This document shows positions 7,778 through 62,380 of a stretch of 64,000 nt of DNA, in pieces. Location of the stretch: sequence record PZ445451.1. One strand, written 5' to 3'. Position numbers and translations under genes: made by a program. The notes beneath the pieces are model-generated. The model worked only from the letters and a program-made list of their open reading frames with translations, did no database searches and had not been told where the DNA came from. Origin of the DNA: a phage. Every line of letters begins with the position of its first letter. Position 1 is the first letter of the stretch.

Positions 7778-7820
7778 TCAAGTCCTCATAATAACACATA
7801 ATTGTAAGGTTTGTCAACAC

Positions 7821-8414: not shown

Positions 8415-8422
8415 ATTTTCTC

Positions 8423-9010: not shown

Positions 9011-9039
9011 AAAAACTCCTTATAAAACAATATGTTAGA

Positions 9040-49890: not shown

Positions 49891-50103
49891 TATTTTGAAA
49901 ATTTTTATTTTTATAAAAAGGGGTGTGGGTTTCATGTACGGAAATTCACCCTCTGCACAGTATATCCAGAGTAAGTAGTATTCTACACCCTGTTAATAAA
50001 GTATTTAATTTGTTTGTTGGACTATGGTATCTGATCTTTAAAAGGCATACTATCTCTTAACTACTACTTATAACAAAACAGTAAAATCATTTTTATAAAA
50101 AGG

Positions 50104-50310
50104 ACAAAATTATTTAAAGTTTTTACAGATTTTTGGATACAAATTTTGAAAATGAAAAGTTCAAGTTTGGTCAAAATTATTTAAAGTTTTTGTACGTATT
50201 TCTATCCAGATTTTGAAAATGAAAACTTCAATTTTTTAAAAATTCCCCAGTTTATTTAAAGTTTTTTTGCCTTTTTCCGTAGAAAAATCAAAAATGAAAA
50301 GTTCAATTTC
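50104..50310. repeat. Three AT-rich tandem repeat units of about 65-80 bp
   Basis: Each unit has TATTTAAAGTTTTT (50112, 50177, 50253) and TTTTGAAAATGAAAA(G/C)TTCAA (50144, 50211, about 50290); the latter holds the inverted pair TTGAA...TTCAA. Confidence 0.6.
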
Positions 50311-50326
50311 GTGTTTTTATAGGTGT

Positions 50327-50445
50327 GCGTATGATAATCATTCTCATTTGTAAATGAGAATCATTATCATTTAATTATGTAAGTGATAATCATTCTCAGT
50401 AAGAGAATGAGAATCATTAGCAAATGAGAATTTTTCTCATTTAGA
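50327..50445. promoter_or_regulatory. Cluster of Fur-box-like palindromes
   Basis: GTATGATAATCATTCTCATTT-GTA-AATGAGAATCATTATC near-perfect palindrome; GATAATCATTCTCA...GAGAATGAGAATCATTA; AATGAGAA-TTT-TTCTCATT; 13-15 of 19 identity to GATAATGATAATCATTATC. Confidence 0.45.
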
Positions 50446-50703
50446 GAATAACGCGCAGGGGCGGTGTTTGTCTCGCGCTCCCGTGTCCCCTCGCCATACA
50501 ATAAGAATAGCATAACCAACAACAAAAGCAAGCGATTATTTTTATCTTTACATTTCTTTACAAATTTATTTTAGACGAGCTACCGGCGATCAACCTTCCA
50601 ACCAGTGCCCCCTGGTATGTTAGCCCCGCCTTTACGCCGTGGGGGTGGCGTTTCCTCTTCTGTATGTAAAACAGTATAAGCCCGATCCCTGGGCTTGTCA
50701 AGA

Positions 50704-50970
50704 TTATTTTTTGTTTTCTTGCCAGGAAAGGACACCTAACCAAAAATACATATCGCCCCGCGCCCCTGGCGGGATCTTGCTTTCCCCGCCGCCACTGCAA
50801 GCCCATAAATAACCATCAGCGAACGGATCAAAATGTTCTATCTCTTCCACCTTATGATCGCCCAGGTTGAGAACGGTTTCAATCTTTAAGCCCGTTGCGC
50901 TTGCTACCTGGTGCACCGTGCCGCCTTGCCAGCCCAATGAGTGCATGAGATGTAAAGGAGTATTTGTCAT
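50704..50970 (-). CDS. Hypothetical protein inside GC-rich island (possible moron)
   Basis: 88 aa minus-strand ORF with RBS-like AAAGAAAGGG; surrounding 0.6 kb is visibly more GC-rich than flanks. Confidence 0.4.
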   Translation of the reverse strand: MTNTPLHLMHSLGWQGGTVHQVASATGLKIETVLNLGDHKVEEIEHFDPFADGYLWACSGGGESKIPPGARGDMYFWLGVLSWQENKK

Positions 50971-51078
50971 GGTATCGCCCTTTCTTTGATGTGCGCCCTG
51001 GTTGGCGCGGTAGAAAGATAATAGCCGTTTCCTTTATAGATAGCAAGCAAAAAAGAAATGAAAAAAGATTAAAAATGG

Positions 51079-51107
51079 TTGACGTTACCAGGATAATAAC
51101 ATATTAT
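51079..51107 (+). promoter_or_regulatory. sigma70-like promoter TTGACG-17-TATTAT
   Basis: Good -35/-10 match with 17 bp spacer upstream of the early gene array. Confidence 0.45.
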
Positions 51108-51234
51108 TCATCTTGTCGAGGGGGGCAAGGCACAACGACAATAAATAAAAGGCGGGTGCAATGCAGGACGGGCAAAGGTGAGGATCTCCATAATCCACCG
51201 TCACAATAACATTACTTATAAAAGGTTGATAACG

Positions 51235-51330
51235 ATGATCAAGAAAGAAAACAGCTTGACGGTTGGAACGATTAACGCTATCATTCTAGCCGTTCCATTT
51301 TGGATTGTAGTAGCGGTTGTTATTTTCTAA
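51235..51330 (+). CDS. Small hydrophobic peptide (31 aa), not in ORF track
   Basis: MIKKENSLTVGTINAIILAVPFWIVVAVVIF, one transmembrane helix. Confidence 0.35.
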   Translation: MIKKENSLTVGTINAIILAVPFWIVVAVVIF

Positions 51331-51339
51331 AAAATATTC

Positions 51340-51395
51340 TTGACAACGTTTTTTAATCTGATAAGATGTATCACATAGGGCGGCAATAGTGCCGC
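51340..51395 (+). promoter_or_regulatory. Promoter plus 5' stem-loop unit (PeSL-like)
   Basis: TTGACA 51340-51345, 16 bp spacer, TAAGAT, then CACATAGGGCGGCAATAGTGCCGC hairpin at predicted transcript 5' end. Confidence 0.65.
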
Positions 51396-51419
51396 TCATA
51401 ACAGAAGAGAGAAATAATC

Positions 51420-51692
51420 ATGGCATCATATAGCGCATCAATGATCGTAACGGGCATGACTGGTAAACCTATGCGCGGTGGCGGATCTTTCGCTAACATC
51501 AATATTGATGGGCGTTTATCCCTGGATGCAGCGATCACCGTGGCACGGGAAACATTTAAAAAAGAATGTAATTTCAATAAACAAGATTATCTCGGCTTCG
51601 TTATTGAAAAAACAGCGCGCTTTGTTGATTATAAAAGCCCGAAAATGATCGACACTACACTAAAAGCGCAAGATGTAGCATTTTTGCTTTAA
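51420..51692 (+). CDS. Early protein, unknown function
   Basis: 90 aa ORF downstream of PeSL unit with A/G-rich RBS. Confidence 0.55.
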   Translation: MASYSASMIVTGMTGKPMRGGGSFANINIDGRLSLDAAITVARETFKKECNFNKQDYLGFVIEKTARFVDYKSPKMIDTTLKAQDVAFLL

Positions 51693-51695
51693 GGC

Positions 51696-51755
51696 TTGAC
51701 ACTGAAAAATAATTTAGTAATATATACCACATAGGGCGGGAAATGGTTTCCCGCC
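51696..51755 (+). promoter_or_regulatory. Promoter plus 5' stem-loop unit (PeSL-like)
   Basis: TTGACA 51696-51701, 16 bp, TAATAT, then CACATAGGGCGGGAAATGGTTTCCCGCC hairpin 51735-51755. Confidence 0.7.
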
Positions 51756-51777
51756 AAATCAAAGAAAGGGTAACACA

Positions 51778-52140
51778 ATGAGCAAGCAAATCAATACTAT
51801 CATGTTAAACCTGGTATCTTTCCGCGATGACGTGAAAAATCTTTCGCGTGATGCAGTGGATGCACGGATCGAAAGCTATCGCACACAGATCGCAACATTA
51901 CCGTTAAAACGTGATCAACATGCCGCTAATATGATGCTTGGTGCTATGATTAAAAAGATGATTCAGTGTGATCTTACCCTGGCTTATGAATATGCTGGCG
52001 ATCTCTTTGTAACGTATAATAAGCCCGTTCCAGGTATGAGCACCACGGAAGAATTGCATGCCTTAAATTTGCGACAAGATGCATGGGATAACATGCGCCG
52101 TGTTATGGTATGGGCCGAAAGCGGTAAAATTTACGAATAA
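51778..52140 (+). CDS. Early protein, unknown function
   Basis: 120 aa ORF, RBS AAAGAAAGGG. Confidence 0.55.
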   Translation: MSKQINTIMLNLVSFRDDVKNLSRDAVDARIESYRTQIATLPLKRDQHAANMMLGAMIKKMIQCDLTLAYEYAGDLFVTYNKPVPGMSTTEELHALNLRQDAWDNMRRVMVWAESGKIYE

Positions 52141-52146
52141 AAACGG

Positions 52147-52200
52147 TTGACATTGCACTAAAACCTGATAAGCTATCTTAAAGCGGGAATTGTTCCCGCT
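52147..52200 (+). promoter_or_regulatory. Promoter plus 5' stem-loop unit (PeSL-like)
   Basis: TTGACA 52147-52152, TAAGCT -10, hairpin AGCGGGAA-TTG-TTCCCGCT 52182-52200. Confidence 0.6.
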
Positions 52201-52218
52201 TACATAGGATAAAACTTT

Positions 52219-52365
52219 ATGAAACAATATGTAATGAGTATCCACACCAAAAACGGCGCTACTGTTACGACTCCGGCACGGTTTGCACTTGTAAACCGTT
52301 GCAAGAGACTAAAACGAGAGTTAAAAAATAACCGTGCAACGGGCTTTAAACGCTGGGGAGGATAA
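52219..52365 (+). CDS. Small basic ORF (48 aa), not in ORF track
   Basis: MKQYVMSIHTKNGATVTT...RWGG; its last codons contain GGAGG 6 nt before the TTG start of the next ORF. Confidence 0.4.
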   Translation: MKQYVMSIHTKNGATVTTPARFALVNRCKRLKRELKNNRATGFKRWGG

Positions 52366-52367
52366 TC

Positions 52368-52628
52368 TTGTTTTTTCTAAAAGTTTGTGATAATGTGATC
52401 GCTTTTGAACATGCTACAACGTTCGACCTGGCGAGATACGCTATCAGGTTTAAAGATAATGTTTATCCCCGTGCTGGCGGCGGTTACACTATTTTTAATC
52501 ACCGTAACGCTCAATTAACGGATATAACTAATCCAGATCCTGGAGTGTATCGGATAGGCTGGCTACCGTCAAAAGACGCTGCAAGCATGTTTAAGGTGTG
52601 TAAACTACTAACAGAAGAGGCGAACTAA
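52368..52628 (+). CDS. Early protein, TTG start, translationally coupled
   Basis: 86 aa frame with no in-frame ATG near 5' end; GGAGG 6 nt upstream of TTG. Confidence 0.45.
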   Translation: MFFLKVCDNVIAFEHATTFDLARYAIRFKDNVYPRAGGGYTIFNHRNAQLTDITNPDPGVYRIGWLPSKDAASMFKVCKLLTEEAN

Positions 52629-52629
52629 C

Positions 52630-53184
52630 ATGGGGCGTGAATATGTGATCCAGTCCTGGGTAAAGCATGATGCTAATGATCCGCGCATAATACCAGATGA
52701 CATGATCGATCACATGGTAGGGTATAGCGGGGAGCAGATAGGAAATCGAGCGGCAAAGAGCAACGGCAACACCAGGACGCGATCCGTTCGTCCTGGATGG
52801 CTGGCGAATGGTAACGCTGACATTGCAAGCGCCGCAGATCCAAGCGATGACGCTAAAAATAATCCCTTGTACAGCATTGATCCGGCTTTTAAGGTGTTGG
52901 AAGAGTATCCCGCTAAATTAGCCGCACTAGATAAGGCATACGAAGAAAAGCGCATGGCCTGGACTGTATACAACACCGCTAAAATGGTGCTAGATGCAAA
53001 ACTAATTAAAGCCCAGGAGAAGATCAATAAACTTGTTACCATAGCGCAAGAGGAAGACCAGGGCGACCAGGAGGAAGAGGAAGAAATCATGCCTACCCTG
53101 GAAGAGGAAGAGATCCAGCCATACATGCCGACAGAAGAGGAAAAAAGACAAGCCCTAAAAAATTATGAAAATTGCATTGTGTAA
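52630..53184 (+). CDS. Early protein with strongly acidic C-terminal tail
   Basis: 184 aa; EEDQGDQEEEEEIMPTLEEEEIQPYMPTEEE tail; ATG overlaps previous stop. Confidence 0.55.
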   Translation: MGREYVIQSWVKHDANDPRIIPDDMIDHMVGYSGEQIGNRAAKSNGNTRTRSVRPGWLANGNADIASAADPSDDAKNNPLYSIDPAFKVLEEYPAKLAALDKAYEEKRMAWTVYNTAKMVLDAKLIKAQEKINKLVTIAQEEDQGDQEEEEEIMPTLEEEEIQPYMPTEEEKRQALKNYENCIV

Positions 53185-53187
53185 GGC

Positions 53188-53243
53188 TTGACATATGCAA
53201 ACAAGCCCCGTAATATGTACCACATAAAGCGGGGCAACGCCCC
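53188..53243 (+). promoter_or_regulatory. Promoter plus short stem-loop
   Basis: TTGACA 53188-53193, 17 bp, TAATAT, then GGGGC-AAC-GCCCC hairpin. Confidence 0.5.
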
Positions 53244-53265
53244 ATAAGGTGAAATAAAAAATCAC

Positions 53266-53293
53266 TTGACACCTGAAATCAGTAAGCTATAAT
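53266..53293 (+). promoter_or_regulatory. Consensus sigma70 promoter TTGACA-16-TATAAT
   Basis: Perfect -35 and -10 hexamers with 16 bp spacer; no following hairpin. Confidence 0.65.
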
Positions 53294-53330
53294 GCTTATA
53301 TAGATTGAAACATTACTAAGGAATAAAAGC

Positions 53331-53510
53331 ATGGCTATTATTGCAAAGACTGAGATCGTAGGTTTAGATTCTATCATCCTGGCATATGAGGAAGCTATAG
53401 AAATGTATGTGGTTTCCTATGGTGATTATATCCGTGAATATAAATCTATTGATCTAGCTTTTGAATGCTATATTCGCCAGGTCAATAAAGCATATGATGA
53501 TTATCGTTAA
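53331..53510 (+). CDS. Small ORF (59 aa), not in ORF track
   Basis: ATG after GGAATAAAAGC; downstream of consensus promoter. Confidence 0.4.
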   Translation: MAIIAKTEIVGLDSIILAYEEAIEMYVVSYGDYIREYKSIDLAFECYIRQVNKAYDDYR

Positions 53511-53529
53511 AAGTTTTAGTCTTGTGCTA

Positions 53530-53558
53530 TTGACAACGAACGATAGTACAAGCATAAT
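53530..53558 (+). promoter_or_regulatory. sigma70-like promoter TTGACA-17-CATAAT
   Basis: Good -35, acceptable -10; no clear hairpin. Confidence 0.5.
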
Positions 53559-53605
53559 AACTTTTATCGGGAATACTCCTAACTAATCAAAAGAGATTAA
53601 AGACT

Positions 53606-53971
53606 ATGGCTAAAAATATCAATGTTTCTGCTTATGCTACCCTGGCTAACACTGCTAAAATTGAACTATCCAGCATTGAAGCGGTACATATTAGCGCCCG
53701 TCGCTGGTTTCAAAAGTCTTATGGTAATACTTATTTCTCTTTGATGGTTGACGTTGAGATCGGCGGTAAACTGATCGAAGTAGTTAACGTTCCGTTTCAA
53801 TATGGTTATGGGGATCATTTTGATACCGTTGCCCTAGAAGAGTTTAGCAAGGTTATCAACCTGGAAGGTAAAGAGTTTTCAAATTATGCTTACCTTTCCC
53901 GCTTTTGCCGTGATAATGGGATCGCTGTATACAGTCATGCAAGCGATGTAAAACGTAAAAAAGATTTATAA
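53606..53971 (+). CDS. Early protein, unknown function
   Basis: 121 aa ORF, RBS AAAGAG. Confidence 0.55.
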   Translation: MAKNINVSAYATLANTAKIELSSIEAVHISARRWFQKSYGNTYFSLMVDVEIGGKLIEVVNVPFQYGYGDHFDTVALEEFSKVINLEGKEFSNYAYLSRFCRDNGIAVYSHASDVKRKKDL

Positions 53972-53977
53972 AAAGCA

Positions 53978-54035
53978 TTGACAGCACGAATAAAAAGCAT
54001 ATAATACTTATATCGAGAGCGGGAATAGTTCCCGC
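53978..54035 (+). promoter_or_regulatory. Promoter plus 5' stem-loop unit (PeSL-like)
   Basis: TTGACA-16-TATAAT (53978-54005), hairpin GCGGGAA-TAG-TTCCCGC 54019-54035. Confidence 0.7.
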
Positions 54036-54059
54036 CTCACTGAAAAAGAGATTAACATC

Positions 54060-54299
54060 ATGGCTAAATCTAAAATGTACAACGGTCACAAAAATAAAAC
54101 TCATTGGAATGTAAGCCTTTGGATTAATAATGATGAATCGTTATACTTATACGCTGTAGGTTTAATAAATGAGTGCGGCAATAAAGATAAAGCGGCGGAT
54201 CTGATGTGCTACAGATTAAAACAGGATGGAATCACTCATACACCTGATGGTTTCAAGTATAGTAAAACTGCAATCCGTGCCGCTATGGTAGGAATGTAA
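54060..54299 (+). CDS. Early protein, unknown function
   Basis: 79 aa ORF downstream of PeSL unit. Confidence 0.55.
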   Translation: MAKSKMYNGHKNKTHWNVSLWINNDESLYLYAVGLINECGNKDKAADLMCYRLKQDGITHTPDGFKYSKTAIRAAMVGM

Positions 54300-54308
54300 T
54301 AAAAGCAG

Positions 54309-54368
54309 TTGACAACGTTTTTTAATCTGGTATAGTTTATCGCATAGGGCGGGAAATGGTTTCCCGCC
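54309..54368 (+). promoter_or_regulatory. Promoter plus 5' stem-loop unit (PeSL-like)
   Basis: TTGACA-16-TATAGT, hairpin GGCGGGAAA-TGG-TTTCCCGCC 54348-54368; core identical to the 51696 unit. Confidence 0.7.
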
Positions 54369-54390
54369 AAATCAAAGAAAGGTTATCATT

Positions 54391-54618
54391 ATGGCTATCG
54401 TTATTGTTCGCGTATCCGGCACGGTTGGAATCTCCCAGGTAGTAGCAGTTATCACCGAGAAGAAAGGGGATGATCTTCACTCCTCATTGAATAGCTGGGC
54501 GGTCGCTAACTTTGGGCAATGGTCGAGCGTTGAGTACATCGAATCCTACCAGGTGCCAACGATTAGCCTGACCGATCTCAACGTTGATCGTCTGTTATGC
54601 CTGGATCAATTAAACTAA
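54391..54618 (+). CDS. Early protein, unknown function
   Basis: 75 aa ORF, RBS AAAGAAAGG. Confidence 0.55.
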   Translation: MAIVIVRVSGTVGISQVVAVITEKKGDDLHSSLNSWAVANFGQWSSVEYIESYQVPTISLTDLNVDRLLCLDQLN

Positions 54619-54626
54619 AAATAATA

Positions 54627-54684
54627 TTGACAAGACAACTAAAATTAGTAAAATGTAATTCATAGGGCGGCAATAGTGCCGCCC
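54627..54684 (+). promoter_or_regulatory. Promoter plus 5' stem-loop unit (PeSL-like)
   Basis: TTGACA-16-TAAAAT, hairpin GGGCGGCA-ATAG-TGCCGCCC 54665-54684. Confidence 0.65.
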
Positions 54685-54705
54685 CTAGTAAGAGAGATTA
54701 TCAAA

Positions 54706-54921
54706 ATGGCTAATATCCGCACCTTGTTAAAAAATGCAAAGCAAGTTTTATTTTCAGATGACGAGTATTTCAACAAAGACATTACAGGCGTGAAAAATTT
54801 AAAAGACGTGAAGGATGTTATCGGTATCCGTGGATCTTTACGTAAAGGTGACATATACGGTAACAAGGTGCAATATAAACTGTCAAAAGATTATGATTTT
54901 ACTTTGACAATTATTTCATAA
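54706..54921 (+). CDS. Early protein, unknown function
   Basis: 71 aa from ATG (MANIRTLLKN); the track start lies inside the 5' hairpin. Confidence 0.5.
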   Translation: MANIRTLLKNAKQVLFSDDEYFNKDITGVKNLKDVKDVIGIRGSLRKGDIYGNKVQYKLSKDYDFTLTIIS

Positions 54922-54927
54922 AACTAC

Positions 54928-54988
54928 TTGTAAACCTGGTAAAATAAAGTAAACTATATTCATCAAGGCGGTGGAATAGCCCACCGCC
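54928..54988 (+). promoter_or_regulatory. Weaker promoter plus 5' stem-loop unit
   Basis: TTGTAA-16-TAAACT, hairpin GGCGGTGG-AATAGC-CCACCGCC 54967-54988. Confidence 0.5.
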
Positions 54989-55012
54989 TAACAAAGAGAA
55001 GAGGAAAACATC

Positions 55013-55183
55013 ATGATCACTTTCACTACCCGTGAAGCCGCTCGCAACGTTGCACGTAAAGTTAACGCCGCCAACCTGGGCGCTACGCTTAAAGCCCCGG
55101 TGAAAGATGAATCAGGAAAATGGATCTTTCCTGGTCTGCGTCACGCTGATAAGCTGGGAACATTAACGTTAAAAAATAAATAA
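55013..55183 (+). CDS. Small ORF (56 aa), not in ORF track
   Basis: MITFTTREAARNVARKVNAANLGATLKAP...; RBS AGAGAAGAGGA. Confidence 0.45.
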   Translation: MITFTTREAARNVARKVNAANLGATLKAPVKDESGKWIFPGLRHADKLGTLTLKNK

Positions 55184-55190
55184 TATCCGC

Positions 55191-55249
55191 TTGACAGTAG
55201 CATCGTTTATAAGTAAAGTAACAACAACGGCGGGAAATGGTTTCCCGCC
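55191..55249 (+). promoter_or_regulatory. Promoter plus 5' stem-loop unit (PeSL-like)
   Basis: TTGACA-17-TAAAGT, hairpin GGCGGGAAA-TGG-TTTCCCGCC 55229-55249. Confidence 0.7.
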
Positions 55250-55269
55250 ATCAATAAAGAGATAAGATT

Positions 55270-55629
55270 ATGAAATCAGTAAAAGCAATTAAAACTTACA
55301 TTGTGTCGGCTATTTCTTTTGATGGTACTACAACCGAAAAAGAAAAAATCACCGAACTGATGCGCCGTTTTAACTCTGAATACTGGTATCAATCTAATCG
55401 TGATCGTTATAATAACAATATGGTACAAGCTGTTAAAAGCTGGTTACAAGGTTTACCGTCAGATATCAATATCGCTTTTAATTATAACGAGATCGATCAA
55501 TTATTAATTGAATGGAAGTACATAAAAGAAACAAGCAAAGAAACAACCGTTACCCGTGAGCGGGAAAATTATTGGTTATATATTGCAAGCATGATCGTAA
55601 CTTTGGCAAAATATCATAACGTAGCGTAA
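55270..55629 (+). CDS. Early protein, unknown function
   Basis: 119 aa ORF, RBS AAAGAGATAAG. Confidence 0.55.
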   Translation: MKSVKAIKTYIVSAISFDGTTTEKEKITELMRRFNSEYWYQSNRDRYNNNMVQAVKSWLQGLPSDINIAFNYNEIDQLLIEWKYIKETSKETTVTRERENYWLYIASMIVTLAKYHNVA

Positions 55630-55643
55630 TCGAGAGGAAAAAC

Positions 55644-55781
55644 ATGAACGCATCACAGCAGATCGAAAAATTCAACCGCAACAAAGCGAGTAAAGATTGG
55701 AACGAAGAGATCACCAAGAAAGGCGACAAGCGGAACAAAACAAAAAGAGATCGCAGCAGCAAAAGATACTGGAACGAATAA
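55644..55781 (+). CDS. Small lysine/arginine-rich ORF (45 aa), not in ORF track
   Basis: ATG after GAGAGGAAA; followed by terminator. Confidence 0.4.
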   Translation: MNASQQIEKFNRNKASKDWNEEITKKGDKRNKTKRDRSSKRYWNE

Positions 55782-55786
55782 CAAAA

Positions 55787-55810
55787 AAGGGCGCAATAAG
55801 CGCCCTTTTA
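55787..55810 (+). terminator. Rho-independent terminator AAGGGCGC-AATAA-GCGCCCTT + TTT
   Basis: 8 bp GC stem followed by T run. Confidence 0.65.
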
Positions 55811-55899
55811 GCTTATATAGAGGCTTGTTGCTTATAGGCAAGGGTAACGCCAGGATAAGCCTATAAACCACGTTAGACGGCTTTACAGGAGCTTTAAAA

Positions 55900-56082
55900 A
55901 TGAAATTAGAGGAAATAAGCAAGGCACTAGCCCAGGGGCAAAGGTTATGCGCCCGATATCGTGATCAATATGGCTTCATAACTAGCGGCGTGATCCTGGG
56001 GATGGAAGGCAATAAGATTTTTATTGACACGTTGAAAAACGTTGTATATAGTGACAATATAATCTCAATAAAACATATATGA
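55900..56082 (+). CDS. Hypothetical small protein
   Basis: 60 aa ORF after ACAGGAG RBS. Confidence 0.45.
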   Translation: MKLEEISKALAQGQRLCARYRDQYGFITSGVILGMEGNKIFIDTLKNVVYSDNIISIKHI

Positions 56083-56492
56083 GGCAAGAAATGAAAAAAT
56101 TATTGATCGCTGGTTTACTCTCTTTTGGCATGGTTGGAACATCTAGCGCGGCGATATCCTCCACAGTAGCAGAATTAAGCGCCGTTGATGCAATGGAAAA
56201 CGTCATGATCATTAATAATGCGATCCCCGATGAAATCATGGAGGATTCACACATGATCGCTTATGGTGCTGTTACACAACTAACGGCAAAAATAGATAAA
56301 TCTATTGTTAATGGCTTAAATGAAGATGTACCATGTGAAATTATTACCAGTGTGCTCACTACTCAAAATTTTACGCCGTGGCTAAAAAGTATTCAAAAAG
56401 TACACAGTACAGCCGCAGATCGTAGCAATGAAAAACTAGTGTCAGCACTTGCAACGTATACCCTAGCAAAATGCACCGAAATAAAAGATTGA
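56079..56492 (+). CDS. Secreted/periplasmic small protein
   Basis: ATGA-coupled start; signal peptide MKKLLIAGLLSFGMVGTSSAA (second in-frame ATG at 56091 also possible). Confidence 0.55.
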   Translation: MRQEMKKLLIAGLLSFGMVGTSSAAISSTVAELSAVDAMENVMIINNAIPDEIMEDSHMIAYGAVTQLTAKIDKSIVNGLNEDVPCEIITSVLTTQNFTPWLKSIQKVHSTAADRSNEKLVSALATYTLAKCTEIKD

Positions 56493-56539
56493 CAACATAG
56501 AAAGCACGTTATAAGATACACACAACAAAGGAGAACTAC

Positions 56540-56842
56540 ATGAACGGCATAGCTAAAACGTTTTTTCTTTTTTCTGGTGTAAATGATCCATCAATAAAAG
56601 TCGATAGCGTAAAAGAAAACAATACTATCACCGCTAAATTGTTTCAAGATGAAACAAATAACGTGCTAATCATTAATCTTAAAGAAATAACAAAAGGTTA
56701 TTATACTATTGCTTACCATGCGATCTATAATGCTGGTACTAGTGAGGAAGTGCAAACAAGCAACAACGAAAGCGCGGCGCTACCTGGTGATCTGGTGCTG
56801 GGCGTTATCAGTTTAATTGTCAATGATTTTTTTAAGGAGTAA
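56540..56842 (+). CDS. Hypothetical protein
   Basis: 100 aa ORF after AAGGAG RBS. Confidence 0.5.
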   Translation: MNGIAKTFFLFSGVNDPSIKVDSVKENNTITAKLFQDETNNVLIINLKEITKGYYTIAYHAIYNAGTSEEVQTSNNESAALPGDLVLGVISLIVNDFFKE

Positions 56843-56846
56843 AACC

Positions 56847-56942
56847 ATGCCCTATTTACATTTATTTTTCGGTATCTTATTGACAGGATCTTTTTTCTTC
56901 TGTATGCTTGTTTCTATTGTAAACCACGTTTTAAAACATTAA
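56847..56942 (+). CDS. Hydrophobic micro-ORF (31 aa), not in ORF track
   Basis: MPYLHLFFGILLTGSFFFCMLVSIVNHVLKH; ATG 7 nt after AAGGAG. Confidence 0.4.
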   Translation: MPYLHLFFGILLTGSFFFCMLVSIVNHVLKH

Positions 56943-56951
56943 GGAAACAGC

Positions 56952-57071
56952 ATGAAAATTATTCCCGTACAGTATAGCGTAATAAATCCAGCATATGAGG
57001 AAGGAAGGAAAACAAGCATGGCTTTATGTTGTATTGCTACTATAGCCATGTTATTATACACTGTGTTTTAA
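56952..57071 (+). CDS. Micro-ORF with hydrophobic C-terminus (39 aa), not in ORF track
   Basis: MKIIPVQYSVINPAYEEGRKTSMALCCIATIAMLLYTVF; RBS AAGGAAAC. Confidence 0.35.
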   Translation: MKIIPVQYSVINPAYEEGRKTSMALCCIATIAMLLYTVF

Positions 57072-57100
57072 TAGGTTTTATAGTTGTACGCTTTAAAGGC

Positions 57101-57128
57101 TTGACAATTTTTTGTTATGCTTTAAAAT
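57101..57128 (+). promoter_or_regulatory. sigma70-like promoter TTGACA-16-TAAAAT
   Basis: Good -35/-10; following hairpin degenerate (CGGC-AAAG-GCCG). Confidence 0.5.
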
Positions 57129-57171
57129 ATATCTTGAAAACGGCAAAGGCCGCAAACAAAAGGGTAAAATT

Positions 57172-57495
57172 ATGAAATCTGTGATCGGTGTTTATTTGGA
57201 TAATTCTGATTTTTTCTATCATCGCGCTCGTTTCCTTGATGCTATTGATATGATAGAATCAGGCTTTAAAGAATACCGCCTTGCACATGATGACCTGGAA
57301 GCATTACAGGGCAATAGTGTTTTTACATTGCAAGCGAAAGCACTATGTAAAAGCCGGATCGACATTGCGAGCAAAAAGATAGAACGCGGCATGTCCTGGT
57401 TGCGCACCGCAGAAATCAACATGGGGCAATGGTACGGCAAAAACTTAGAAAATAAACATACCTTTGTCAATGTAGAAAATATTGAAGATTATTGA
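57172..57495 (+). CDS. Early protein, unknown function
   Basis: 107 aa from ATG (MKSVIGVYLD) after AAAGGG; track start lies upstream of the predicted transcript start. Confidence 0.5.
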   Translation: MKSVIGVYLDNSDFFYHRARFLDAIDMIESGFKEYRLAHDDLEALQGNSVFTLQAKALCKSRIDIASKKIERGMSWLRTAEINMGQWYGKNLENKHTFVNVENIEDY

Positions 57496-57557
57496 TTGAC
57501 AGCACATCTAACGAGTAGTATATTGTATCTCATAGAGCGGGGAAATGGTTTCCCCGC
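57496..57557 (+). promoter_or_regulatory. Promoter plus 5' stem-loop unit (PeSL-like)
   Basis: TTGACA-17-TATATT, hairpin GCGGGGAAA-TGG-TTTCCCCGC 57537-57557 (compensatory G:C relative to other copies). Confidence 0.7.
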
Positions 57558-57577
57558 CTTAAAAGAAGAGATAAGCT

Positions 57578-57862
57578 ATGAAGATCACAAAAGCACTTTC
57601 CAACTATGCAGCACGTCGCGGATTATGCTTATCCGTTGAAAACTTAGGGAAAGAAGATTTTTTGTGTTTTTGGGAGCTTGAAAATGAAAGTGAATGGTTG
57701 TTCTCTTATTCTATCTGCGAAGATCAAAACGGTTGTTTGTTAACCTGGCGCGGTAATATCTATCTACCGGAAGAAATCAAAGAAGAATTGCCAGGCACGA
57801 TCATGACTGAGAAACAGCTTAAGGAAGTGATTAATTTTGTAGGGCAAAACATTAAAAAATAA
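57578..57862 (+). CDS. Early protein, unknown function
   Basis: 94 aa ORF, RBS AAGAAGAGATAAG. Confidence 0.55.
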   Translation: MKITKALSNYAARRGLCLSVENLGKEDFLCFWELENESEWLFSYSICEDQNGCLLTWRGNIYLPEEIKEELPGTIMTEKQLKEVINFVGQNIKK

Positions 57863-57863
57863 T

Positions 57864-57920
57864 TTGACACTAGGCAAACAACGTAGTAAAGTTTATCACA
57901 TAGGGCGGCAATAGTGCCGC
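57864..57920 (+). promoter_or_regulatory. Promoter plus 5' stem-loop unit (PeSL-like)
   Basis: TTGACA-17-TAAAGT, hairpin GCGGCA-ATAG-TGCCGC 57905-57920; near-identical to the 51340 unit. Confidence 0.65.
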
Positions 57921-57943
57921 TCATAACAGAAGAGAAACAAATC

Positions 57944-58114
57944 ATGATCCCGACTATGTTTTATGTATCGCGCAAAGGTCACAATATTTTTTGGTCTGAA
58001 GATTTAAATGAAGCCATGACGTTTGCCCGTGATCGTGTTGCTATCGGTGGCGTTAACATTACTGTAACCGATGAAAACGGCATTGAATACTATAACGGCG
58101 ACGATGAAGAGTAA
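57944..58114 (+). CDS. Early small protein (56 aa)
   Basis: ATG (MIPTMFYVSRKG); track GTG start lies inside the 5' hairpin. Confidence 0.5.
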   Translation: MIPTMFYVSRKGHNIFWSEDLNEAMTFARDRVAIGGVNITVTDENGIEYYNGDDEE

Positions 58115-58121
58115 TTAATAA

Positions 58122-58142
58122 GGCGGGGGAGTATTCCCCGCC
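58122..58142 (+). other. PeSL-type hairpin without an upstream promoter
   Basis: GGCGGGG-GAGTATT-CCCCGCC directly after a stop codon and 20 nt before next ATG; no TTGACA/-10 upstream. Confidence 0.45.
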
Positions 58143-58161
58143 GTCAATAAAGAGGTAAATC

Positions 58162-58431
58162 ATGAAAATATCTTTGGACGTTGCAATCAAGGCCATCGAA
58201 TCCGGTTACACCCTGGTAAAAGATGATAAGGCTAAAATAGTGCATCATGTTAACAAGGAAACAGGCGAAAGCATGATCACATATAAAGCCGCCTACTTTC
58301 TCCAATCAGTAGCAGATCCGCGCGTACAACGCCAGGTTACAGCGGCTATTGCTAAAAAATTATGTGCTTTACAGGGCACAAGTTTTAACGAGATCGCCCC
58401 GTGTTTTGACTGGTCGAGCTTGAAAAAATAG
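58162..58431 (+). CDS. Early protein, unknown function
   Basis: 89 aa ORF, RBS AAAGAGG. Confidence 0.55.
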   Translation: MKISLDVAIKAIESGYTLVKDDKAKIVHHVNKETGESMITYKAAYFLQSVADPRVQRQVTAAIAKKLCALQGTSFNEIAPCFDWSSLKK

Positions 58432-58432
58432 T

Positions 58433-58494
58433 TTGACAATATGCTGTTATCTGGTAAAGTGTACGACATAGGGCGAGGCAATAAGGCAACGCCC
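58433..58494 (+). promoter_or_regulatory. Promoter plus divergent 5' stem-loop
   Basis: TTGACA-16-TAAAGT, then ATAGGGCGAGGCAATAAGGCAACGCCC imperfect hairpin. Confidence 0.5.
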
Positions 58495-58513
58495 ATTAAT
58501 GAGGGGTAGAATC

Positions 58514-58618
58514 ATGTTAGAGAAAATTTTCACGGTTGTAATAGTGGGCCTGGCGTTATCGGTTGGATTGGTTGCAACTATGGCTAACATGATCCTATCT
58601 TCCCACGGTATTGGATAA
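58514..58618 (+). CDS. Hydrophobic micro-ORF (34 aa), not in ORF track
   Basis: MLEKIFTVVIVGLALSVGLVATMANMILSSHGIG; RBS GAGGGG. Confidence 0.4.
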   Translation: MLEKIFTVVIVGLALSVGLVATMANMILSSHGIG

Positions 58619-58628
58619 GGTGAATCAA

Positions 58629-58844
58629 ATGATCACGAATAAGACAGGTAAAACAGAATTTTTACGCAGCTTGCAAATAGGTAAACCTGAGATCTGGCAT
58701 TGCACTAAATCCGCGCATAATGAAATGAAAGATTTTACCGCTACTTTACAACGTGTTAAAATATCTATCACACAGAAAAAAGCCTTGTTAGTAGTAGAAA
58801 ACGAGATCCCGCAAACCATTATTATTGTCGAGCGTACAGCATGA
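58629..58844 (+). CDS. Early small protein (71 aa)
   Basis: ATG 6 nt after AAGGTG; track TTG start less likely. Confidence 0.5.
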   Translation: MITNKTGKTEFLRSLQIGKPEIWHCTKSAHNEMKDFTATLQRVKISITQKKALLVVENEIPQTIIIVERTA

Positions 58845-59227
58845 AAACTGAAATCATTAACGAAATGATCAACGGCTATAAAGAAGCCTTTATTTTTGCC
58901 GAACCAGCGACGGATCACAATGGGGAATATATTGAGAATCTAGACGATTATGATTTTTCTCCTAGCGCCCTGAAACGTATTACCAGCGATGTGACCGCCT
59001 TTTGTAGTGCCAATGTTGCCGCTATCTCTGAGGCAATGAGCGACGGCGCTACAGCAAACCAGATCGGGAATGATTTACATTTTACCCGTAACGGTCACGG
59101 CGTAGGTTTTTGGGATCGCCCTGAAATATACACTACTAACACCGCCAACCGTTTAACTGATGCAGCTAAATTAATGCCATTGGTGCATGCTTACATTGGT
59201 GAAGATAATTTGATTTATATTGACTAA
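58841..59227 (+). CDS. Early protein, unknown function
   Basis: 128 aa ORF, ATGA-coupled to previous gene. Confidence 0.55.
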   Translation: MKTEIINEMINGYKEAFIFAEPATDHNGEYIENLDDYDFSPSALKRITSDVTAFCSANVAAISEAMSDGATANQIGNDLHFTRNGHGVGFWDRPEIYTTNTANRLTDAAKLMPLVHAYIGEDNLIYID

Positions 59228-59232
59228 AAGTG

Positions 59233-59290
59233 TTGACACCGATCCCCAATATGTTATTATTTACCACGTAAGCGGGAAATGGTTTCCCGC
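59233..59290 (+). promoter_or_regulatory. Promoter plus 5' stem-loop unit (PeSL-like)
   Basis: TTGACA-16-TATTAT, hairpin GCGGGAAA-TGG-TTTCCCGC 59272-59290. Confidence 0.7.
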
Positions 59291-59314
59291 CAGGTAATCA
59301 AAAAGGTAAATACT

Positions 59315-59704
59315 ATGCGCAACCTGGTTTCTGTTTCTAACGTTGAAAAATTTCAATCTTTACAGGGTATCGTTAACAACGTAGCGCCTTTTTTAGTCAA
59401 CGGCTTGATTGCAAAGATGAAAAATAAACATCATGCGGCATGGTCTGCTTACTGCTTTGATAATGATGAAAAAGCGGCTGAAATGATGCTAAATATGCTG
59501 TTAGACAGTGTAGAATCATCTTTACCGGAAAACATCGCAGAAGAGATCACCTATCGTTATAATATGGCGATCACTTACCAGGAGGTTGCGCAATTTAATA
59601 TGATGGACGATGACGAACAACAGGATCAGGAAATGTTTTGGGAGTATGCTGATCGTCAATCGGCTTTTGATGAAAAATTAGCGATGTATTATAACGAATA
59701 TTAA
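59315..59704 (+). CDS. Early protein with acidic segment
   Basis: 129 aa from ATG after AAAAAGG; track start lies inside promoter/hairpin. Confidence 0.55.
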   Translation: MRNLVSVSNVEKFQSLQGIVNNVAPFLVNGLIAKMKNKHHAAWSAYCFDNDEKAAEMMLNMLLDSVESSLPENIAEEITYRYNMAITYQEVAQFNMMDDDEQQDQEMFWEYADRQSAFDEKLAMYYNEY

Positions 59705-59717
59705 TACACGGTAAAAG

Positions 59718-59745
59718 AAAGGGGCGCACTAAGCGCCCTTTTTTG
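59718..59745 (+). terminator. Rho-independent terminator GGGCGC-ACTAA-GCGCCC + TTTTTT
   Basis: GC stem followed by six T. Confidence 0.65.
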
Positions 59746-60089
59746 TATTCTTTTTTCACGATGGAAACAACACGTAAAGAATAGGCGTAAAGGTGGCGTA
59801 AAACCATCTAAAACCGACTGTAACCGCTTAAACAAGGTAGGAATGATTAATCACCTTACCAGGGTGAAAAAGCTGTTATAAAGCTACCTAGAGCGTTTAA
59901 AGCACATAGGGAATAATTTGCTTTTTATCTTGCCTTTTATCCTGCTTTTGATTATTATTATGGAACGGGCGGCACCTGGGGACAGGGGAAGATAATCACC
60001 GGAAGATCCCGCTATATATTGATAGCTAATACCTATTAAACAACAAAACATCAAAGGAATAAACTATCAAATCTTTACAATCCTACCTA

Positions 60090-60150
60090 TTGACACAGGA
60101 TCACCCTTATACTAATATGTATCCCGTAGGGCGGGAAATGGTTTCCCGCT
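60090..60150 (+). promoter_or_regulatory. Promoter plus 5' stem-loop unit (PeSL-like)
   Basis: TTGACA-17-TAATAT, hairpin GCGGGAAA-TGG-TTTCCCGC 60130-60150. Confidence 0.7.
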
Positions 60151-60168
60151 TGATATAGGAATCATACC

Positions 60169-60402
60169 ATGATCGAACAAATTAAAAGCACTACACCAAA
60201 TGTTAACGGCAATGTTTCACACTTTATCGGTGATAATGAAAGGGGCACACCATACGCCGCCGTAACCGTGCAACCTAATGGCGATTATTGGTTTACCGTG
60301 TACGGATCATACTCTTTCGGACGCCCGGCACATGATAAGATCTTGCAAGCGGTTAAACCTGCGGGGAAGAATATCACAGCAGAAAAATTTTATAAAAAAT
60401 AG
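60169..60402 (+). CDS. Early protein, unknown function
   Basis: 77 aa ORF. Confidence 0.55.
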   Translation: MIEQIKSTTPNVNGNVSHFIGDNERGTPYAAVTVQPNGDYWFTVYGSYSFGRPAHDKILQAVKPAGKNITAEKFYKK

Positions 60403-60403
60403 C

Positions 60404-60432
60404 TTGCTTTATTTCTTCTGTTAACTTATAGT
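60404..60432 (+). promoter_or_regulatory. sigma70-like promoter TTGCTT-17-TATAGT
   Basis: Acceptable -35/-10; downstream GTAGGGC start conserved but hairpin degenerate. Confidence 0.4.
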
Positions 60433-60477
60433 TATCGCGTAGGGCAAACAATTTTAAACGGTAAACGAGGAATCACC

Positions 60478-60861
60478 ATGAGCAATATCATCAACCTGGC
60501 AGCGACTGTAAACGGTAAAGATTTTAACGGCGCTGTAGACCGTGATCCTATGTGGTGCTTATCAGTGTTTAAAGGCGACCTGGTTGAAGTTAGAACAACC
60601 GAAGGCTATAGCGATGATTATAAATGCGAGATCCATTTACATAACTGGTACACGGGGAAAACTTATGCGCTGAATCACGCATTTATCGGGAAAATTGAAT
60701 ATCGCGAAATGATCGACGAAGAAACGGGGCAAGATTTTAGCGATTATGTTTATATCCGTTCAGAAACATTAGCCGAACGCTTGATCGAGAAAATGAAAGC
60801 AAAAAATAAAATTAATTTAGCTCATTGGCTTGATATAACAAATGATCCGGCTTACAAGTAA
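60478..60861 (+). CDS. Early protein, unknown function
   Basis: 127 aa ORF, RBS ACGAGGAA. Confidence 0.55.
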   Translation: MSNIINLAATVNGKDFNGAVDRDPMWCLSVFKGDLVEVRTTEGYSDDYKCEIHLHNWYTGKTYALNHAFIGKIEYREMIDEETGQDFSDYVYIRSETLAERLIEKMKAKNKINLAHWLDITNDPAYK

Positions 60862-60876
60862 ATAACATTTCACACC

Positions 60877-60903
60877 AGGGCGCACAAAGCGCCCTTTCTT
60901 TTT
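60877..60903 (+). terminator. Rho-independent terminator AGGGCGC-ACAAA-GCGCCCT + TTCTTTTT
   Basis: 7 bp GC stem and T-rich tail ending the early gene array. Confidence 0.65.
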
Positions 60904-61106
60904 ACCTAAATAAAGATGATAGCTTTTACCTATCAAAAACGTTCACCGAAAAAAGTGAATAGATCGCGGTATCGAGCTAATCAAGGAGCAGATGAACAAC
61001 CATACCATGAAGATCATAAGGCGCTTACAACGTGTTTTAGACCGCTTATTTTTAATTTCTCAATGTAACTATCGGGCAAAAACAGCCTTTTTCTTGTCTT
61101 TCCTCT

Positions 61107-61182
61107 TAAATGATAATCATTCTTATTTATAGCTGATTATTTATGCAATAAACTGCATAATGCAATAATGATAATCATTCTT
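61107..61182. promoter_or_regulatory. Two Fur-box-like sites
   Basis: AAATGATAATCATTCTTA (61108-61125) and AATAATGATAATCATTCTT (61164-61182); the latter matches the Fur consensus at 16 of 19 positions. Confidence 0.45.
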
Positions 61183-61573
61183 AACTTATGACCATCTAAC
61201 CTATAAAATAATAAGTTATCTAACTAAATTAAAACTAATTATCCCACCTTTATTTATAACTTACTTTTACTATCTCATTGATAACCTTATATTAAACAAC
61301 AATAACCAATATAAATCATTACTAAGCTAACTATAATCTATCTAACCCTTAAAACTATAACTATAATCTATCGAATTGTTGCACAAAGTAACTATTAAAT
61401 TGTTAGTAACTTTACTAAATAATTAATATCCTATCTATTTATGATCTAATCTTTACCTTACTATCTATTACCTAAATAACCATTTCATACAGAAATTATT
61501 TCATACAATAACTATAACAAGAAATATAATTCGCAAGCGTATCATTAGCAGCCTATGCCGGACACATAGGCGG

Positions 61574-61719
61574 CTAATAATAACGCAACTACACACCCCA
61601 CATAATAACCATCACCGATAGTTATTATTTGTGCTTATGTAGCTTGCAACAATTGCAAGCGCAACAATATACATGGTATATTGTATCCCTTACATTGTTG
61701 CGGTGCGTTATTATTAGCT
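61574..61719. repeat. Long nested imperfect palindrome
   Basis: Outer arms GCTAATAATAACGC (61574-61587) and GCGTTATTATTAGC (61706-61719); inner CGCAACAATA / CATTGTTGCG; GCTTGCAA-CAA-TTGCAAGC at 61643-61661. Confidence 0.6.
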
Positions 61720-62045
61720 AATGTTTGGAACATTGGCTATAATATAAGCTACATATAATAAGCTATACAATAATAAACATAATGAATAATGACACTGATG
61801 ATCATAATGCGCCACCTTCCAGGGGGCGCTATGTGAACACAAAGAAATCTTTCTTGTCAAGAAAAATATCACCATTATTGCGCAAAATTATTTATATCTG
61901 AACAGATGATTTTTCATACTATTGCCCCCTATAGTATCCCTATTTGTTGTAATGTATTCCCCTATTTGTTGAGCCTACTCTCTTAAAAGCGCAATAAATT
62001 AGAATTATCTTGATTTTTAGGTAGTTTTATAGTATAGAAAATATG

Positions 62046-62064
62046 CAAATGATAATCATTATCA
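62046..62064. promoter_or_regulatory. Fur-box-like site
   Basis: GCAAATGATAATCATTATC matches GATAATGATAATCATTATC at 17 of 19 positions. Confidence 0.5.
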
Positions 62065-62240
62065 GCTATCTTCCACAGGTGGCACTATTTCACGCCAGAT
62101 CATTTCATTTGGCAAGGTGTATATAGATGTTTAGAAATGCCAAGCCATTGATTTACTTAGAATTTATCTGTTTTGTTGTGAGTAGTGCCTTTCTTGCTCA
62201 GAAAATAATCAAAAGTCTTATAAGTCATTGAATGATAATG

Positions 62241-62259
62241 CAAATGATAATTATTCTCA
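62241..62259. promoter_or_regulatory. Fur-box-like site
   Basis: GCAAATGATAATTATTCTC, 15 of 19 match; preceded by another AATGATAAT half-site at 62232-62240. Confidence 0.4.
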
Positions 62260-62380
62260 TTGATATTTGAGGGGGACGGTCGGCAGAAATCGGGGGCGCT
62301 AAAAATCGCGTTAAGCACCTCTCGCAAGCGAGCAGTATTTTGCGGCAAGTTATTGATATTATTGGCTTTACGCTTATGGA

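Follow-up and report, generated by a model that had tools for sequence, protein, structure and literature searches.

The stretch of phage DNA described here, 64,000 nucleotides long and referred to below as the window (record PZ445451.1), corresponds to positions 32676–96675 of the genome of Escherichia phage PaulScherrer (Bas60, MZ501100.1), so that a window coordinate is equal to the record coordinate minus 32675. The locus of interest is a tandem array of five palindromes, designated array 1, which closely resemble the binding sites (Fur boxes) of the host iron regulator Fur. It is placed in a noncoding region (49891–51419), and similar sites are found in and just before a second one (61133–62717). 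The 1 kb around array 1 is 100% identical to PaulScherrer, a strictly virulent, phi92-like phage that belongs to Justusliebigvirus (Stephanstirmvirinae). Two yardsticks were used for the sites, the 19-bp Fur consensus GATAATGATAATCATTATC and the 15-bp motif of inverted heptamers, 7-1-7, TGATAATNATTATCA. The former is given as the Fur consensus in PMC4506495, where two interacting dimers per box are also described. The predicted sites are as follows.

50329–50442, no strand: array 1, five tandem Fur-box palindromes, recognized by sequence reading, motif match, and statistics
50332–50346: core 1 of array 1, TGATAATCATTCTCA
50355–50369: core 2, TGAGAATCATTATCA
50384–50398: core 3, TGATAATCATTCTCA, the same letters as in core 1
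50408–50422: core 4, TGAGAATCATTAGCA
50425–50439: core 5, TGAGAATTTTTCTCA
51227–51241, no strand: weak Fur-like match, TGATAACGATGATCA, with 2 mismatches and without the AAT-C-ATT core
61111–61125, no strand: Fur-box site, TGATAATCATTCTTA (AAATGATAATCATTCTTATTT), 14/19 to the 19-mer
61169–61183, no strand: Fur-box site, TGATAATCATTCTTA, 16/19 to the 19-mer
62050–62064, no strand: perfect 7-1-7 Fur site, TGATAATCATTATCA, within GCAAATGATAATCATTATC
62233–62259, no strand: half-site TGATAAT and full site TGATAATTATTCTCA, 15/19

The common form of the palindromes of array 1 is AATGA(T/G)AAT-C-ATT(C/A)TCATT, with the inner 15 bp representing the 7-1-7 motif. In full, and in order, they read gtATGATAATCATTCTCATTt, aAATGAGAATCATTATCATTt, aaGTGATAATCATTCTCAGta, gAATGAGAATCATTAGCAaat, and aAATGAGAATTTTTCTCATTt, and are separated, centre to centre, by 23, 29, 24, and 17 bp. 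Sites 1–5 deviate from TGATAATNATTATCA by 1, 1, 1, 2, and 3 mismatches, respectively, or by 0, 0, 0, 1, and 1 if the alternation of T/G and A/C is allowed (TGAKAATNATTMTCA), and the first four of them agree with GATAATGATAATCATTATC at 15–16 of 19 positions. A preliminary description, made from the sequence alone, had reported three palindromes at 50327–50445 with a match of 13–15 of 19 positions to the Fur consensus; both the palindromes and the match are real, although the number of the former is five and the latter was put slightly too low. The similar sites that it listed at 61108–61182, 62046–62064, and 62232–62259 are all present in the sequence. Around the perfect core at 62050, the 19-mer at 62045–62063 reaches 17/19. 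Over the nine phage sites, the core carries 0–2 mismatches in eight and 3 in the ninth, and the agreement with the 19-mer is 14–17/19. It is doubtful that the match at 51227–51241 is a member of this set.

Two controls bear on the frequency of such sites. Matches to TGATAATNATTATCA with at most 2 mismatches were counted in 100 dinucleotide shuffles of the window and, because the sites sit in AT-rich noncoding DNA, also in 1000 simulations based on first-order Markov models of each noncoding region. A comparison with a shuffled background had been proposed in the preliminary description; in it, the window, with 10 matches versus 0.91 ± 0.82 in the shuffles (largest count 3), lies well above chance. 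The region 49891–51419 contains 5 sites versus 0.023 expected, and the region 61133–62717 contains 3 versus 0.068, with 0 of 1000 Markov simulations as high in either case. In the full 150,425-bp genome of PaulScherrer, used for the whole-genome controls, these two noncoding regions, which constitute 2% of the genome, hold every one of the five sites that have no more than 1 mismatch, and 8 of the 12 that have no more than 2. Chance as the origin of the sites is ruled out by both the shuffle and the Markov statistics.

A symmetrised 21-bp matrix, derived from the nine phage sites only, was used to scan 50 kb of the E. coli K-12 genome (595000–644999). Its six best hits fall only in the fepB–entC, fepA–fes, and fepD–entS intergenic regions, that is, in the classical Fur-controlled divergent promoter regions of the enterobactin cluster. 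The best of them, at entC, reads AAATGATAATCATTATTAAAG, to be compared with AAATGATAATCATTATCAGCT at position 62047 of the window. Since a matrix that contains phage sites alone picks out the known Fur regions of ent/fep, the phage motif is operationally the same as the host Fur box. The Fur-box-like identity suggested in the preliminary description is thus borne out by the consensus match, this cross-recognition, the excess over chance, and, as described below, the preservation of position in diverged relatives; together with the dyad symmetry and the selection that such preservation implies, these strongly support the assignment of the predicted sites to the Fur-box family. Binding of Fur at them is very probable. 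The motifs of ArgR, Zur, PerR, NrdR, and CRP type were excluded by the spacing and sequence of the half-sites. When the array was compared by BLAST with 5,426 complete E. coli genomes, only marginal hits in small plasmids resulted (E ≥ 1); the search was uninformative, because in 28 Gb of sequence no match so short and AT-rich can become significant.

The same motif could, in principle, be read by something other than Fur. The palindromes would then be operators for a phage protein, or for another host protein with a Fur-like preference, or they would act as RNA hairpins, Fur being irrelevant to them; we consider this highly unlikely. Many small proteins of the phage are uncharacterised, and the gene of a "putative DNA-binding protein" (62718–63179) is located directly downstream of the terminal sites. 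However, no Fur-like protein is encoded by the phage according to a tblastn search with E. coli Fur (best E = 3.4), and the candidates have no recognisable domain, with 0 hits in a Pfam scan of ten phage proteins that included all those near the sites annotated as DNA-binding proteins or transcription factors. The matrix, in turn, recovers the host Fur sites with complete specificity. As to RNA, neighbouring palindromes are able to form hairpins of 17–19 bp, but these would be expected to drift by covariation and not to hold a Fur consensus.

The position of the sites can be described relative to several landmarks of the genome.

50089–50309, no strand: three direct repeats of 67–75 bp, directly left of array 1
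50445–50665, no strand: conserved noncoding element (CE) of ~215 bp, adjoining the last palindrome of array 1
50634–50661, plus strand: terminator-like hairpin with a T-rich tail, closing CE
50673–50701, minus strand: sigma-70 promoter TTGACA-17-TATACT (11/12), reading leftward through CE to array 1
51340–61132, plus strand: right-terminal early module with ~30 small genes, ~20 near-consensus sigma-70 promoters, and no Fur box inside
61972–62313, no strand: equivalent (342 bp) of the direct terminal repeat of phi92, with its edges set by direct comparison with both phi92 repeats

Conservation of array 1 extends well beyond its closest relatives. The array region is 97–99% identical in ~60 Justusliebigvirus genomes, which is weakly informative, but the array is also kept in phage alia, in phi92-like contigs of IMG/VR, and in Klebsiella and Phapecoctavirus relatives. 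The informative genomes are those in which the flanks of the array either share 70% identity or cannot be aligned. Four palindromes are found at the position of array 1 in Klebsiella phage phi1_175008 and also in the Phapecoctavirus phages tuntematon and ESCO5, the latter two with some degenerate copies; Klebsiella phage KP13-16 has three. The Vequintavirinae phages SSE121, EspYZU14, and Erwinia pEp_SNUABM_01 have one perfect palindrome each (AATGAGAATCATTCTCATT; TTGAATGAGAATCATTCTCATTT). The distance from the start of the last palindrome to the invariant core of CE, GGTGTTTGTCT, is 38 bp in all relatives compared, while the spacers differ and the central base of the palindrome is either C or G. 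Because the spacers differ and the central base switches, what is conserved appears to be a protein-bound dyad, and not RNA pairing or the sequence for its own sake. When the CE core was used as an exact pattern in a scan of IMG/VR, 5 of the 17 matches were true homologues and the rest were mostly due to chance.

The remaining sites are also maintained. The equivalent of the 61111 site in ESCO5 reads CAATGATAACCATTATCATCT and occupies the same relative place between unalignable flanks, and the 61169 site is found in phi92. The 62050 site is identical in both terminal repeats of phi92, with a degenerate copy at the same place in ESCO5, and the 62233–62259 site is kept in both phages. ESCO5 retains three of the four terminal-region sites even though its 1.5-kb noncoding region no longer aligns with that of PaulScherrer. 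Its Fur-like sites are placed behind the last terminator and in the left and right parts of the repeat equivalent.

A BLAST search with the region 61000–62750 reaches the end of the phi92 record, which is annotated as a 343-bp right end direct terminal repeat, with an identical left repeat opening that record. In the window, the perfect site 62050 lies within the terminal-repeat equivalent at 78 bp from its left edge, and the double site 62233–62259 ends 54 bp before the right edge. Both boxes lie inside the repeat equivalent and are therefore present at both ends of the virion DNA. The 61111 and 61169 sites follow the last terminator of the early module (60877–60905), after its last sizeable gene, so that the module, a host-polymerase early module that takes up the last 12 kb at the right end of the genome, has array 1 as its left border and these two sites as its right one. 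Array 1, at the inner (left) border, is separated from the right end by 11,982 bp, or 7.95% of the virion DNA. The location at the edge of the early region given in the preliminary description is correct, with ~20 near-consensus sigma-70 promoters present in 51340–60120; what had been missed is that the positions coincide with the terminal repeat and with the limits of the terminal module.

The early promoters in 51340–60120 are characterized by a perfect TTGACA, a spacer of 16–17 bp, and TAtAaT, with roughly one promoter for each small plus-strand gene. Many of them are paired with GC-rich hairpins, giving a modular block of promoters, genes, and terminators. None of the ~20 early promoters carries a Fur box in the whole-genome site scan. 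The strong promoters nearest to the sites (50701–50673 on the minus strand, 51340–51367 on the plus strand, and the ~20 of the module) do not overlap with any site, and no good promoter overlaps the arrays. Because the sites are positioned away from the early promoters, promoter occlusion of the early genes is improbable; the option of Fur control raised in the preliminary description, taken as simple control of early promoters, is not supported, since these promoters have no Fur boxes and the arrays overlap no good promoter. On the left side of array 1, the plus-strand operon ends at 49890 and no recognisable terminator was found there, whereas from the right side the minus-strand promoter 50701–50673 fires toward the array, which therefore lies between predicted converging transcription. 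The position of this minus-strand promoter is kept in the Klebsiella, SSE121, and Erwinia relatives, with different spacer sequences.

A conventional role of Fur would nevertheless be conceivable on a smaller scale. As classical operators, the arrays would occlude weak promoters within or beside them, so that a few noncoding or small transcripts would be made only under iron limitation. The candidates are a rightward transcript of CE, from ~50450 to the hairpin 50634–50661, and a transcript that starts from the terminal repeat at ~62040. Such action is the usual mode of Fur boxes (PMC4506495), and several features of the locus agree with it: the last palindrome adjoins CE at a fixed distance in all relatives compared, a conserved nAGAAT hexamer follows that palindrome, the plus-strand terminator-like hairpin closes CE ~200 nt downstream, and a TATAGT is found ~17 bp upstream of the perfect 62050 site. 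Against this, the promoter-like matches that overlap the arrays reach only 9/12 and are made by the palindromes themselves, the candidate −10 element lacks the essential A2 in the Erwinia phage (CGGAAT), and there is no conserved −35 element. The promoter with good conservation lies 215 nt off, on the other strand, and five tandem sites exceed the need of an operator. The host boxes of fepB–entC, fepA–fes, and fepD–entS share with the phage sites the motif, the dyad symmetry, and the AT-rich context, but they overlap the −35 and −10 elements of iron-acquisition promoters and are present as 1–3 per region; the phage arrays have up to five, overlap no good promoter, and, in a virulent phage, lie at the ends of the genome and the limits of a module. 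We regard classical operators as unlikely.

The properties of CE also weigh against a regulated transcript. The blocks CGGTGTTTGTCTCGCG, TCTTTACAAA, and CTACCGGCGAT are invariant between Stephanstirmvirinae and Vequintavirinae. CE matches no family in Rfam; searches with the two noncoding regions yielded nothing but spurious hits to miRNA and snoRNA families, scoring far under the gathering thresholds. CE folds no more stably than shuffled sequences do (z = +0.7), and RNAalifold found only 1–2 covarying pairs on either strand among eight relatives. CE may be an RNA or a DNA site (origin or pac-like). The direct repeats on the other side of array 1 (TTATTTAAAGTTTTT ... TTTTGAAAATGAAAAGTTCAA) are annotated as a repeat_region in phage alia, and at the corresponding position SSE121, EspYZU14, and the Erwinia phage also have a set of three repeats, although with an unrelated sequence. 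This points to iteron-like sites for a phage protein.

A distant BLAST search with the array region unexpectedly matched T5-like phages. SSP1, EC122, and T5 have five to six palindromes of the type AAATGAGAATCATTATCATTT, also written AAATGAGAATCATT(A/C)TCATTT, and arrays of similar sites are present in several other viral contigs.

9549–9715 of T5 (NC_005859.1): Fur-like palindrome array, inside the 10,219-bp terminal repeat and the annotated injection stop signal 9140–10149
233–247 of T5: perfect 7-1-7 Fur box, inside dmp, 233 bp from the left end
6504–6777 of L037, 43–310 of L112, 11637–11865 of L120, 14692–14819 of L033, and 5260–5521 of L131: arrays of 4–6 predicted Fur boxes in unrelated viral contigs of IMG/VR (26–54% GC)

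In T5, the array is found behind the terminator 9275, between the rightward pre-early genes T5.011–017 and the leftward early genes from T5.018 onward, at 7.8–8.0% of the genome from the end. It is located just to the right of paired DnaA boxes and 30 bp to the left of the major nick 9748, followed by direct repeats GTGCAAATCCGACA. Beyond the left-end box and the array, there is no further strong site in the first 62.5 kb of T5. These T5 elements were described by Davison (bioRxiv 10.1101/866236) as DRC and palE–palJ, with the first-step shear point (~9618) among them and with eight DnaA boxes, paired in inverted repeats, per first-step region. In the same report the palindromes are called extremely conserved and their function impossible to guess, and Fur is not mentioned. 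A 2026 paper describes the injection stop signal only as repeats, palindromes, and DnaA boxes, and nowhere in the T5 literature that we searched are the sites of the array called Fur boxes.

The arrangement around array 1 resembles that of "Repeat Region 3" (the injection stop) of T5, in which a terminal module of small genes is likewise followed by an array and then by direct repeats. In both phages the array is found where a terminal block of small genes, in T5 those of host takeover, has its inner limit; the T5 array is also within the terminal repeat. However, T5 belongs to an unrelated family (Demerecviridae) and differs by the presence of DnaA boxes, of a site-specific nick by the array, and of a 10.2-kb repeat. 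No DnaA boxes (TTATCCACA, at most 1 mismatch) are present in either noncoding region of PaulScherrer, whereas T5 has four in 9437–9518. The proteins common to the two phages, NrdA, NrdB, NrdD, a Sir2-like protein, PhoH, and a phosphatase, are metabolic only; no homologues of the T5 pre-early proteins, including A1/A2, were found in PaulScherrer (best E = 0.037), and the phages have no regulator in common either. Because the DnaA boxes and the A1/A2 homologues are absent and the layout alone is similar, membership of PaulScherrer in the T5 injection-stop class is not demonstrable.

This similarity forms the basis of another explanation, in which the arrays and direct repeats would serve as a signal for DNA entry or for processing of the genome ends, marking a pause in first-step transfer or aiding the terminase at the terminal repeat, with Fur recruited in the manner of IHF at lambda cos. 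The T5 array lies inside the injection stop signal and straddles the shear point, the palindromes of T5 being, moreover, elements the function of which is stated in the literature to be unknown. The only other strong T5 box in the 62.5 kb is the one close to the left end, and in PaulScherrer two boxes are placed 78 and 54 bp from the edges of the repeat. The order of the elements is the same in the two phages, and the agreement in distance from the end, 7.95% for array 1 and 7.8–8.0% for T5, is striking, though weakened by ESCO5, for which the distance is only ~6% by our own estimate of the end position. On the other hand, neither two-step injection nor the end that enters first is established for phi92-like phages, PaulScherrer lacks the DnaA boxes found by the T5 array, the terminal repeat has 342 bp rather than 10 kb, and Fur is a cytoplasmic and iron-conditional protein. 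A signal of this kind is, in our view, quite unlikely. A bolder variant, which we consider a long shot, is that Fur-box arrays are a convergent boundary signal of the terminal modules in T5-like and phi92/rV5-like phages, with host Fur, instead of or together with DnaA, being the long-sought host factor that arrests or gates the transfer or expression of DNA at the T5 injection stop. If so, genome entry or exit from the pre-early program would depend on the iron status of the host, and ~12 kb at the right end of phi92-like genomes would constitute a first-step module similar to that of T5.

The motif is not limited to these two groups of phages. A scan of IMG/VR with the exact pattern AATGAKAATNATTMTCATT found at least 120 loci. 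Among the matches listed are T5-like and rV5-like contigs, a contig of 345,809 bp, contigs with 49–54% GC that have four or five boxes together with (GAGAAT)n runs, and a 145-kb contig with 26% GC and eleven sites. A 41-kb contig appeared to have an array at either end, but its assembly overlaps circularly and only one array is present. Since unrelated phages carry the motif without a common regulator, while Fur is common to all the hosts, a shared phage regulator is implausible. The option of a phage regulator with Fur-like specificity, put forward in the preliminary description, is accordingly disfavoured: no Fur homologue is encoded, no DNA-binding protein is shared with the T5-like phages, and the arrays occur in unrelated contigs.

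The number of boxes raises the question of titration, the remaining option of the preliminary description. With ~11–13 boxes per genome and hundreds of genome copies, the phage DNA would act as a sponge that titrates Fur and derepresses iron uptake, suf, and nrdHIEF, feeding the iron-dependent enzymes of the phage, which encodes NrdAB and NrdD. In the Fur titration assay, an artificial plasmid system, multicopy Fur boxes derepress a chromosomal Fur-controlled reporter; that assay resembles a phage sponge in that many copies of Fur boxes are present in one cell. The density of sites, 5 in 110 bp versus 1–3 per host intergenic region (ent/fep), would suit such a role, and some arrays elsewhere among viral contigs, those with (GAGAAT)n runs, have the appearance of platforms for binding and nothing else. 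The copy-number arithmetic also allows it, since 11–13 boxes with two dimers each, in ~200 copies, would approximately equal the Fur pool, which we take to be ~5,000–10,000 monomers per cell. A sponge, however, does not need fixed positions, whereas the sites are fixed to the base pair relative to CE and the repeat edges, and in Vequintavirinae a single site is kept at the place of array 1. Its effect would come late in infection. In T5, in addition, the array exists in just one copy at the time when the host chromosome is degraded (T5 annotation), so that derepression of host genes cannot be what it serves there. Titration thus agrees with the copy numbers but leaves the fixed positions, the single site of Vequintavirinae, and T5 unexplained, and we consider it very unlikely. 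None of the three functional options of the preliminary description is demonstrated.

We tentatively favour, at somewhat less than an even chance, a different explanation, namely that the sites are genuine, high-affinity operators of host Fe2+-Fur, kept by selection, which would act in cis as iron-dependent boundary elements. A boundary accounts best for the sites because all of their positions are borders, be it behind terminators, between converging transcription, or at the edges of the terminal repeat. In an iron-replete host, holo-Fur would coat the arrays, with two cooperative dimers on each 19-bp box, and the coated array would constitute a stable nucleoprotein block, serving as a boundary or roadblock to RNA polymerase and possibly to other DNA-tracking machines. 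Such blocks would flank the terminal early module and would also be present at the ends of the genome. In an iron-starved host the block would be absent and the barrier open. If Fur occupies the sites in vivo in this way, the phage would be able to read the iron status of its host, which is relevant to its own iron-dependent ribonucleotide reductases: PaulScherrer codes for class I NrdA/NrdB and for a NrdD homologue, and the fact that both phage groups encode iron-dependent ribonucleotide reductases provides a possible rationale for iron sensing.

Several points weigh against an iron-dependent boundary. The whole case for it is built on sequence. Fur classically represses by promoter occlusion, and a roadblock is not, to our knowledge, an established mode of action of E. 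coli Fur. For a role that is structural and nothing else, a factor that binds only under iron-replete conditions would be a strange candidate; the iron conditionality would itself have to be the point. The 61111/61169 and terminal-repeat sites are outside the zone of convergent transcription. Finally, the genome-wide screens for host factors of T5 that we know of are dominated by fhuA, with fur not listed among their hits, so that under laboratory conditions Fur is probably dispensable, whatever its role.

Fur operators on phage DNA have precedents in temperate phages. One is the Fur box of the stx1 promoter. Another is the Fur box upstream of the sitABCD cargo in lambdoid coliphages (PMC6969025). 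Such cargo boxes are similar to the sites of PaulScherrer in being Fur operators on phage DNA that are tied to the host Fur regulon, but they are single operators on the promoters of prophage morons, whereas PaulScherrer is strictly virulent, carries no such cargo gene, and has its arrays at genome landmarks. While Fur boxes are textbook knowledge as operators on the promoters of bacterial iron genes and a few prophage cargo genes, conserved arrays of them at landmarks of virulent phages, away from promoters, appear to be new: neither Fur boxes in virulent coliphages nor landmark arrays were described anywhere in the open-access literature searched, the rV5 genome paper included, which is no proof of novelty.

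The predicted sites would link a host iron regulator to genome architecture in two unrelated groups of virulent coliphages, a link that is open to test, and host iron status may feed into the lytic infection cycle in a way that has not been described. The injection-stop palindromes of T5, with their mechanism open for decades, have the same motif. If Fur binds, the arrays would offer a cheap and direct handle on iron sensing by lytic phages and on a role of a host metalloregulator in DNA entry, transcriptional insulation, or end processing. It would also be of relevance to phage therapy, as infected tissue is iron-limited and Fur would be off the DNA there.

Some additional features of the window were observed near the subjects discussed above. 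A motif AAGGGGGTGTGT..AAATAAATCGG occurs in three copies (62269–62293, 62381–62405, and 62458–62482) in the interval from the terminal repeat to the first gene of the left-terminal module, and a similar copy is present at ~49914–49940, on the upstream side of array 1. The motif may represent a promoter specific to the phage or a protein site. A large inverted repeat (61573–61718), with perfect 15-nt arms GCTAATAATAACGCA and TGCGTTATTATTAGC and with a second palindrome inside it (61654–61694), is located ~300 bp to the left of the terminal-repeat equivalent. It is kept in phi92 and ESCO5 and is a candidate for a packaging or end-recognition structure. At 37062–37090, within the gene of an intein-containing UvrD/Rep helicase, a perfect DnaA box TGTGGATAA adjoins a Fur-like box CAAAATGATAATCTTTATC that matches at 16/19; the pair recalls the neighbourhood of the T5 array, but may be due to chance.

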